From the IMG/VR virus record IMGVR_UViG_3300030250_000013: 54,876 nucleotides of DNA, one strand, 5' to 3'. This DNA comes from a virus. Taxonomy: Duplodnaviria > Heunggongvirae > Uroviricota > Caudoviricetes. The notes below the pieces were generated by a model that was not told the DNA's origin, searched no databases, and worked only from the letters and a program-made list of their open reading frames with translations. Position 1 is the first letter of the stretch. Every line of letters starts with the position of its first letter. The position numbers and the translations under genes are program-made. Below are positions 15,166 to 17,154 of this stretch, piece after piece.

Positions 15166-17154
15166 ATGGCTAACTGTAATGATTATATCAGTGCTGATGA
15201 TTTGAAAACAGGCAAACAAGCGATTTTACATATCGAACACGTTGCGAAAAGTCGTGATGATAACGGTAACCCCGCACTGGAAGTAACAGATATCATCCGT
15301 GGTGAATCAGTTACTAACCCTACGCTAGATGGTTTTTTTAGTTCGGTAGGTTTTAAACCTGCAGACGGTTCATTTGAAGACGGTGGTACGATTAATCATC
15401 GCTGGGAAACTTTATTATATAAAGCAGAAGGTAATTACTATCAATGGATGGGTGTACTACCTAAAGTTGTTCCTGCCGGTTCAACACCTGCGACTACGGG
15501 TGGTGTTGATGTTACACACTGGGTAAATCAAAGTGATTTAACATTACGAAACGATCTTAAATCTAATAAAGGCAGTTCAATAGTAACGTCGGCGTCTGGG
15601 GTTTCTGCGCAAAGATTGGCATCCGGGTATAATTTCATAGGGCTGTCAACATCAGAAAATGTGATTAATAGTAATATTGACGCAATAAAAGACCCGGCAA
15701 CTGGACTGTTTTGGGTATATGAAGGTGCTGTTTCGTCACCATTAATTGTCCCTGCAGGTACTGTTCCTCCCGAGCAACCATTGGCAAGGTACACGTCTAC
15801 TAATTGGCGGTGTGTAGGACTACTTGACGGCTATAAGGAGACAAACGCTAAAAATTACGGTGCTAAATGTGATGGGGTAACTGATGATTATTACGCCTAT
15901 CAGTTGGCGCTGTACCACACTAAAAGTCACGTAACCCATATTGGCGACGCACGAATTGCCACAGCTACGCTCATTAAACCAGTTGGAGTGAGCATTGTTG
16001 GTGCATCTGGGTACGTAGGTGCGCAGCTTGGTAATAATCTTCCATTTACTACTTTTACGTTCGACGGTCCTTACGGTAAAGACACGTACGCTATCGATAA
16101 CGGTGAAAGTGCTGGAACTGAAGATTCGGGACGCATTCAGTATGTATATCTCCGTGCGATCAATGACTCTAAGGATAATCTTAACGCAGTTAAATTGACC
16201 AAGGCCGGGCAGTTGATGGATTGCGGGATTTTAAATTTCTGGAACGGTGTTAAATACGATGGGGGAAGCGCCTACGTACAAATCCACAGAAATAATATTA
16301 ACTCCTGCAACTGCTGCATTGATGCAGCTGGAAGTGAGTCACATATCACCAATAACCACGGGTATAATGACAGCATACGTACTTCTGCACAGTTCAGACC
16401 TGCTATTCTTATCAGAAGTGCTGGTAACATCGTTACTGAGAATAAATTCTTTGGCGACGGGGCAAATACCCCAAAAGGAGTAGAGATATGGGGTCCGGGT
16501 AATGTGGTGGCAAATAACGTTTTTGACGCTTTTACCGACATTGGGATCCTGATAACCTGCAATGACGCCTCTGTCCTGCCTGATAATAATTTAATATCAG
16601 GAAACCTGATTACGGGGATTGGTGATTCGTCTGATACGGCTAATACATTCCGAGCAGGAGTAGTGGTAAGCAATTCTGGTGCGGGGGCCGGGACTATAAC
16701 AGGAACTGTTGTATATGGAAATAGTATGTATAACAAAAGAACAGACCGACAGATGCAGTATGGAGTAGTGATAAATGCGATATCTGGTTCTTTTCCTGAT
16801 TCACGGACCATATACAACACTTTGATTACGGGCAACACTTTCGGATTCGGGATTACCGGGCGGAAGGTGATTGCTCTTGGGGCTAACCATTCAGGAAGCA
16901 GAAGTAACAATAACTCCGGCGTTATTACTGAAGCAATTGGGAGTGGTACGTATTCAAACGGAGCAGTGATACAACATGGAATGTCAAGACCACCAGAATT
17001 TATAGAGTTCACACTTATAGATTCTGGAAATCCAGTTGCTATTTCATTCTCTGCGGTAACTGATACAACATTTACTATTATGATCAGAGATTCTTCTGGA
17101 GGGATAAGCGGAACCCGTGCTGTTGCATGGAAAGCATCAAGATTAACGCCTTAA
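15166..17154 (+). CDS. tailspike / tail fiber with parallel beta-helix (putative depolymerase)
   Basis: Start at ATG 15166 after GGAGAC; Gly/Asn-rich repeats (GNxxxxN, NNxF) typical of pectate-lyase-like beta-helix. Confidence 0.55.
   Translation: MANCNDYISADDLKTGKQAILHIEHVAKSRDDNGNPALEVTDIIRGESVTNPTLDGFFSSVGFKPADGSFEDGGTINHRWETLLYKAEGNYYQWMGVLPKVVPAGSTPATTGGVDVTHWVNQSDLTLRNDLKSNKGSSIVTSASGVSAQRLASGYNFIGLSTSENVINSNIDAIKDPATGLFWVYEGAVSSPLIVPAGTVPPEQPLARYTSTNWRCVGLLDGYKETNAKNYGAKCDGVTDDYYAYQLALYHTKSHVTHIGDARIATATLIKPVGVSIVGASGYVGAQLGNNLPFTTFTFDGPYGKDTYAIDNGESAGTEDSGRIQYVYLRAINDSKDNLNAVKLTKAGQLMDCGILNFWNGVKYDGGSAYVQIHRNNINSCNCCIDAAGSESHITNNHGYNDSIRTSAQFRPAILIRSAGNIVTENKFFGDGANTPKGVEIWGPGNVVANNVFDAFTDIGILITCNDASVLPDNNLISGNLITGIGDSSDTANTFRAGVVVSNSGAGAGTITGTVVYGNSMYNKRTDRQMQYGVVINAISGSFPDSRTIYNTLITGNTFGFGITGRKVIALGANHSGSRSNNNSGVITEAIGSGTYSNGAVIQHGMSRPPEFIEFTLIDSGNPVAISFSAVTDTTFTIMIRDSSGGISGTRAVAWKASRLTP

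Follow-up and report, generated by a model that had tools for sequence, protein, structure and literature searches.

Modular tailspike exchange, in which a conserved N-terminal adaptor is kept and the C-terminal enzyme is swapped, is familiar from P22-like, T7-like, and K1-5-type phages and was reportedly treated by Casjens and Thuman-Commike in 2011. Tailspikes TSP1-4 of CBA120 and gp208 of Det7 (Ackermannviridae), as well as gp13 of the siphophage Sf11, consist of a Tail_spike_N domain (PF18668) followed by a beta-helix enzyme body, and docking of such a spike on the distal tail protein of a siphovirus has been described for Sf11 (PMC12724387). The system closest to the one considered here is the tailspike gp55 of Salmonella phage 9NA (PDB 3RIQ; genome KJ802832), for which an inverted orientation of the gene was already described, and frequent horizontal exchange was noted for this protein domain (Casjens et al., 2014; PMC4153490). 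Here we analyze a gene of this kind at positions 15166-17154 (plus strand) of a 54,876-nucleotide (nt) stretch of viral DNA (Caudoviricetes; IMG/VR record IMGVR_UViG_3300030250_000013), hereafter referred to as the window. A preliminary description had singled it out as an inverted, horizontally exchanged beta-helix tailspike gene. Our analysis points with high probability to the tailspike gene of a 9NA-like siphovirus whose product is a chimera, consisting of a backbone N-terminus and a body that was acquired by recombination together with a terminator-like hairpin, and whose orientation was inherited.

The window is ~95% identical in nucleotide sequence to the E. coli phages PJ16, AVIO78A, and Bas82 (KarinMuster), ~92% identical to the Salmonella phages Sasha, Sergei, and Solent, and 79% identical to Salmonella phage 9NA, identities on which we assign the window phage to the Nonanavirus/Sashavirus (9NA-like) siphoviruses. 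The plus-strand open reading frame (ORF) at 15166-17154 encodes 662 amino acids (aa) plus a stop codon, exactly as first described; its ATG lies 8 nt downstream of GGAG, and homologues share the initial MANCNDYIS, which rules out an in-frame TTG at 15139 as the start. The protein matches Tail_spike_N at aa 68-122 (nt 15367-15531) with 53.8 bits against a Pfam gathering cut-off of 25 bits, belongs to PHROG tailspike/tail-fibre families, and is present in identical form in nr under the name 'MAG TPA: tailspike protein'. When the PDB was searched by sequence, only aa 57-151 matched solved tailspikes, including Sf11 gp13. The Gly/Asn-rich central region noticed earlier is borne out by composition, with 12.4% Gly and 10.2% Asn over aa 220-590 compared with 6.9% Gly in five pooled head and tail proteins of the window.

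The limits of the exchanged DNA are evident from comparison with PJ16. By blastn, 95% nucleotide identity extends to position 15548, no homology is found from 15549 to 17184, and 95% identity sets in again at 17185, where the stop codon of the convergent J-like tail-tip gene has its last base; codons 1-128 therefore belong to the backbone. This backbone-specific part (15166-15548, plus strand) includes Tail_spike_N and is presumed to be the virion anchor. At the protein level, the first 130-140 residues share 82-85% identity with PJ16 and AVIO78A and 57% with the 9NA tailspike, and they carry the 9NA-type N-terminus (MANCNDYIS...ILHIEHVA...). The exchanged segment (15549-17184, plus strand) comprises the linker, the beta-helix body, the C-terminal domain, the stop codon, and the hairpin. 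Thus, of the host-range cassette originally proposed, the exchange of the receptor-binding part stands, but the cassette is not self-contained, as codons 1-128 and the whole 5' junction are backbone sequence.

In keeping with the proposed cassette swapping, the body that is foreign relative to PJ16 recurs at 88-90% nucleotide identity on other backbones: in a 45-kb siphovirus (L009; window positions 15584-17157, 88%), in the Justusliebigvirus myovirus KKE7M (L003; 15700-17178, 89.8%), in a T7-like podovirus (L008; 15700-17166, 90.3%), and in a 47-kb siphovirus (L010; 15700-17191, 88.8%). The KKE7M tail spike (XLQ29711.1; Stephanstirmvirinae) is 85% identical in amino acid sequence over aa 58-662, and its DNA likeness includes the hairpin, but it has a different N-terminal attachment region, and its gene lies, co-directional with its neighbours, in a genome of 149 kb for which two or more tail-spike genes are annotated. 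More distantly, a 45%-identical body is joined to the P22 head-binding domain in a P22-like prophage, and bodies of 63-67% identity occur in two further unclassified contexts (L102, L103). A protein alignment shows six different N-termini, all joined to this single body. Two Sashavirus-type contigs (L004, L005) carry the same chimera with the same junctions at 92.7% nucleotide identity; the acquisition is therefore older than their split from the window phage.

As in the P22-like, T7-like, and K1-5-type exchanges, the breakpoint directly follows a conserved N-terminal adaptor, and one body is found on P22-type (PF09008), T7-type (PF03906), and 9NA-type N-termini. The difference is that here a terminator hairpin accompanies the body on five or more backbones, an arrangement for which we found no published description, although no literature search was aimed at it. 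The exchange unit, running from the end of the Tail_spike_N region to the hairpin, is thus mapped to within a few nt on the right, with two nested junctions delimiting it on the left, and body and terminator are placed on no fewer than five distinct, identifiable phage backbones, besides the two unclassified contexts and the 45%-identical P22-like copy. The body family is small, with 13 representatives at 50% clustering among 1.84 billion proteins, and KKE7M is the only phage isolate that carries it (1 of 50,697 records). Conversely, the 9NA-type N-terminus is present in 111 of the 120 cluster representatives listed, and their C-terminal parts form ~82 clusters, marking the tailspike locus, by sequence, as a swapping hot spot. 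For IMG/VR, a search with the single protein returned three loci, and an alignment-based search returned 80, nine of which are true 9NA-type loci; the remainder share the Tail_spike_N domain only. The second tailspike gene of KKE7M (L003 17021-17102) is 76% identical in nucleotide sequence to window positions 15422-15503, which encode the Tail_spike_N core YYxWxGxLPKxVPxGSTP. Such a shared core stretch could serve as the left-hand homology for cassette recombination.

Near its right end, the exchanged segment contains a G+C hairpin, CCCCGC-CGAA-GCGGGG (17161-17176, both strands), with a perfect 6-bp stem, a 4-nt loop, and folding energies of -11.8 kcal/mol on the plus strand and -15.3 kcal/mol on the minus strand. 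It had been described as a bidirectional terminator, a claim that is half supported: the G+C stem-loop and a U-rich minus-strand tail are present, but the terminator scan called the minus strand only, as the minus tail ATTGTTTT (AUUGUUUU) passes and the plus tail TTATACTC (UUAUACUC) does not. In KKE7M, L010, L008, and L102 (67% identical), the homologous gene likewise ends in a stop codon with the same stem, here with a TTCG or TTAG loop, immediately behind it; a U-rich tail comes next in L010, L008, and L102, but only UUU in KKE7M. In the window, homology ends 2-8 nt past the stem and the U tract is shortened to UU, so that the plus-strand U-rich tail appears to have been truncated at the junction.

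The loop itself (17167-17170) reads CGAA on the plus strand in the window and L004, TTCG in L010, L008, and L102, and TTAG in KKE7M. Since the loop is flipped relative to the palindromic stem, the stable UUCG loop falls on the tail-operon transcript. With this loop and -15.3 kcal/mol on the minus strand, the hairpin would be better placed to stop the tail operon than the tailspike transcript. It is not shared by the locus at large. PJ16 lacks a hairpin altogether, as the stop codons of the two genes share 4 nt, and the hairpin of 9NA is unrelated and stronger. Among 14 loci, the tailspike/J junction varies between an overlap of 4 nt and a stretch of 554 nt that contains additional small genes. 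The terminator is thus an accessory that comes with certain cassettes, and the locus as such does not include it. Examples of the variable convergent junction are found in L001, L002, L012, L013, L020-L022, and L101. Four lineages show a 3-4-nt overlap of the stop codons, elsewhere gaps of 15-91 nt occur with or without unrelated hairpins, and gaps of 174-554 nt contain extra small genes, among them an SSB-like gene (Bas82, L101) and, past the tailspike gene of Carvaje, a small ORF co-directional with it.

To characterize the body, an AlphaFold2 monomer model was built from a 47-sequence alignment (mean predicted local distance difference test score 87.7; predicted template modeling (TM) score 0.75). 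The model shows a regular short-strand beta-helix pattern over about aa 225-590 (15838-16935, plus strand, boundaries approximate), a right-handed parallel beta-helix, followed by a small all-beta C-terminal domain at about aa 591-662 (16936-17151, plus strand) that is kept in all body homologues. Foldseek returned 131 PDB matches at E≤0.001, with the CBA120 tailspikes TSP3, TSP4, and TSP1 and the Det7, Sf6, and HK620 tailspikes at the top of the best 50. The beta-helix on which the preliminary description had staked its claim is thus found by structure prediction and Foldseek, and Pfam and PHROG matches agree with a right-handed beta-helix tailspike of the polysaccharide-depolymerase type. 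Membership of the body in the pectate-lyase-like beta-helix superfamily is established by fold and transitive homology only, with PF12708 or PF13229 matched by relatives at 30-41% identity. Compared with the CBA120, Det7, and Sf11 tailspikes, the body is only 12-17% identical, and residues 1-57 of the window protein occur specifically in 9NA-like phages. Across 20 homologues reaching down to 25% identity, D386, E391, H393, H398, D431, D454, and D527 are invariant or nearly so. The spacing of D386, D431, and D454 corresponds to about one or two helix turns, which on the model suggests that these three residues form a candidate catalytic groove.

These findings favor a mechanism in which the gene encodes a single tailspike, the receptor-binding protein, that would be a two-part chimera. 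Its N-terminal part, up to about residue 128 and including Tail_spike_N, would anchor the spike at the tail tip, as judged from homology to the 9NA tailspike, which is carried on virions, and the 57% N-terminal identity to 9NA suggests that the protein is present in the virion. The beta-helix and C-terminal beta domain, from about residue 129 or 140 to 662, most likely bind and cleave an enterobacterial surface polysaccharide (O-antigen or capsule), a recognition that would set host range; the conserved Asp, Glu, and His residues are compatible with cleavage or modification of such a polysaccharide. Body and hairpin would have entered the 9NA-like backbone by recombination, with the left junction inside the gene just past the widely shared Tail_spike_N region and the right junction at most 6 nt from the J-like stop codon.

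Several observations weigh against this explanation. Foldseek alignments reach modest TM-scores of 0.36-0.45, the level to be expected when a multidomain protein is modeled as a monomer. The body (aa 140-662) matches no Pfam family even at E≤1, PF12708 and PF13229 included, and virion association is indicated solely by the N-terminal homology to 9NA. No member of the body family has a known substrate. KKE7M, the sole isolate with the body, was grown on K-12, which lacks O-antigen, and the body DNA has no match in 5,426 complete E. coli genomes, which therefore offer no prophage clue to an O-antigen or capsule target. What is new is a matter of detail, namely this uncharacterised body on a 9NA-like backbone and a body that carries its terminator along; the orientation is a known lineage trait, the mosaic structure is of a known kind, and known tailspike biology is unchanged. 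The mapped module should be useful for host-range engineering in 9NA-like or BASEL-type phages and for metagenomic annotation of tailspikes.

The preliminary description took the inversion of the gene as a hallmark of cassette exchange, and one could accordingly regard the whole gene as a self-contained, recently inverted host-range cassette whose inversion is the trace of its horizontal arrival. It is indeed the only supported plus-strand gene in ~19 kb, and its body is clearly foreign to the backbone. However, an antiparallel tailspike gene between the lysis cassette and the J-like gene is found at all 20 loci examined that have a 9NA-type N-terminus (PJ16, 9NA, Bas82, Klebsiella phage Carvaje, Enterobacter phage Mulvp2, nine loci from IMG/VR, and six from metagenome or genome assemblies), an arrangement that spans phages of Salmonella, E. 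coli, Klebsiella, and Enterobacter whichever receptor-binding body they carry and that was published for 9NA. The left breakpoint lies inside the ORF, and the 5' 383 nt of the gene together with the holin junction are backbone sequence (~89-95% identity). Moreover, the body gene is co-directional with its neighbours in all other backbones where neighbours could be seen (L003, L006-L010, L102, L103). A recently inverted cassette is therefore highly improbable; the antiparallel orientation is ancestral, inherited by the whole 9NA-like group, and not a product of this exchange. The locus thus provides a clean worked example in which gene inversion is no marker of cassette exchange in 9NA-like phages. 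The chemistry of the body could also differ from that proposed, in that the beta-helix might only bind glycan, as an adhesin-like fibre, or act by a non-hydrolase chemistry such as that of a lyase or an epimerase-like enzyme. We consider this unlikely: the seven near-invariant residues fit an active-site groove, and the closest solved phage folds are O-antigen-specific tailspikes (Det7 in both fold searches; CBA120, Sf6, and HK620 in Foldseek), which we take to be glycan-cleaving enzymes.

A further alternative concerns the coding content of the exchanged DNA, as a stop-free antisense frame of 292 codons lies inside the 3' half of the tailspike gene (about 16277-17153, minus strand) and might represent a functional second gene, read for example by tail-operon transcripts passing the hairpin. 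The frame exceeds all 2000 synonymous-codon shuffles (mean 138, standard deviation 27.5), antisense stops at Tyr, His, and Gln sites number 0 of 16 in aa 371-662 compared with 16 of 36 in the first half, and six carriers keep the frame open over 225-293 codons. These six carriers, however, are only 7-12% diverged in nucleotide sequence, and in homologues at 67%, 63%, and 45% amino acid identity the open stretch measures only 86, 130, and 131 codons, respectively. In L004 and L010 a stop removes its first 67 codons, the antisense ORFs have no Pfam or PHROG matches, and the third codon positions of the sense and antisense frames coincide, so that an open frame costs little. An antisense gene is thus the least probable of these alternatives, and we ascribe the long frame to chance or to sequence composition in this clade. 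Neither of the antisense ORFs at 16272-17012 and 15528-15794 has a family match, and the long one, although statistically unusual, was rejected as a gene, as it is broken in more distant homologues. Elsewhere in the window, the gene at 24877-26334 (minus strand), in the major tail protein position (9NA gp47), also has an unusually long antisense open frame, of 197 codons, a length reached by 5 of 300 synonymous shuffles.

At the 5' end of the tailspike gene, the divergent holin and tailspike start codons are separated by 26 nt (15140-15165). Within this gap the palindrome CTCCTGGAG (15149-15157) forms back-to-back Shine-Dalgarno sites of the two genes; the junction region is kept in PJ16, Bas82, 9NA, and Carvaje, and the exact palindrome only in the group of the window, PJ16, and Bas82. 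As the gap is filled by two ribosome-binding sites, any promoters must lie inside the neighbouring ORFs. A two-hexamer sigma-70 scan gave no promoter near the holin or tailspike start codon, and a search for extended -10 elements, with a background of 0.2 sites per kb per strand, gave exactly one good candidate per direction. The candidate for the tailspike gene, TGCTATTAT (15098-15106, plus strand), lies inside holin codons 60 nt before the tailspike ATG, and that for the lysis cassette, TGATATAAT (15182-15190, minus strand), is a perfect match inside tailspike codons 6-9, 43 nt before the holin ATG. The former is kept as TGYTATKAT in PJ16, Bas82, 9NA, Carvaje, L025, L098, L100, and L101; the latter is invariant in the same eight relatives, where nearby synonymous sites vary. 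Both are absent in a subgroup with an intergenic region of ~95 nt. Because both candidates lie in coding sequence, their conservation alone is no proof of function.

We tentatively raise the possibility, to which we give rather less than even weight, that the junction is a compact bidirectional control point with two divergent extended -10 promoters, each inside the coding sequence of the other gene. If so, the 5' ends of the two mRNAs would be complementary over ~60 nt, which would couple or mutually limit expression of the tailspike and lysis genes and could explain why the first tailspike codons and the orientation are fixed while everything downstream is swapped. With regard to readthrough from the plus-strand early genes as a source of tailspike transcript, no hairpin was evident in the 64-nt gap at 13740-13803.

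The lysis cassette (13804-15139, minus strand; divergent from the tailspike gene) consists, by PHROG and Pfam matches, of genes for a holin, an M15 endolysin, a DUF2644 membrane protein, and a spanin, in an order identical to that in PJ16, 9NA, and Bas82. On the other side, the convergent J-like tail-tip gene (17183-19711, minus strand; 842 aa) matches phrog_469 (tail protein, E = 9e-217) and, weakly, FNIII-A_GpJ, and its product is 98% identical in amino acid sequence to that of PJ16 and 81% identical to 9NA gp54. It is followed by further minus-strand genes, which encode minor tail proteins and the tape measure protein. Consistent with the earlier statement that the tailspike gene is the sole plus-strand gene of the region, no other supported plus-strand gene was seen from 13.8 to 32.5 kb. 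A gap of ~470 nt in the head-tail joining region (28185-28650) contains a 64-aa plus-strand ORF (28270-28464), which, if real, would be a second plus-strand gene within 13.7-32.5 kb. Rfam and tRNA scans over the whole window found nothing. Opposite-strand inserts occur in the tail module of relatives, namely gp46 in 9NA and genes for a hypothetical protein, an endonuclease, and a 'superinfection immunity protein' in Bas82. Their sites (L011 12692-13588; L012 13324-13587 and 14441-15536) correspond to window positions 23982-24052 and 26335-26370, where the window lacks these inserts and has no room for them. The tape measure protein comprises 971 aa in the window compared with 855 aa in PJ16 and Bas82.

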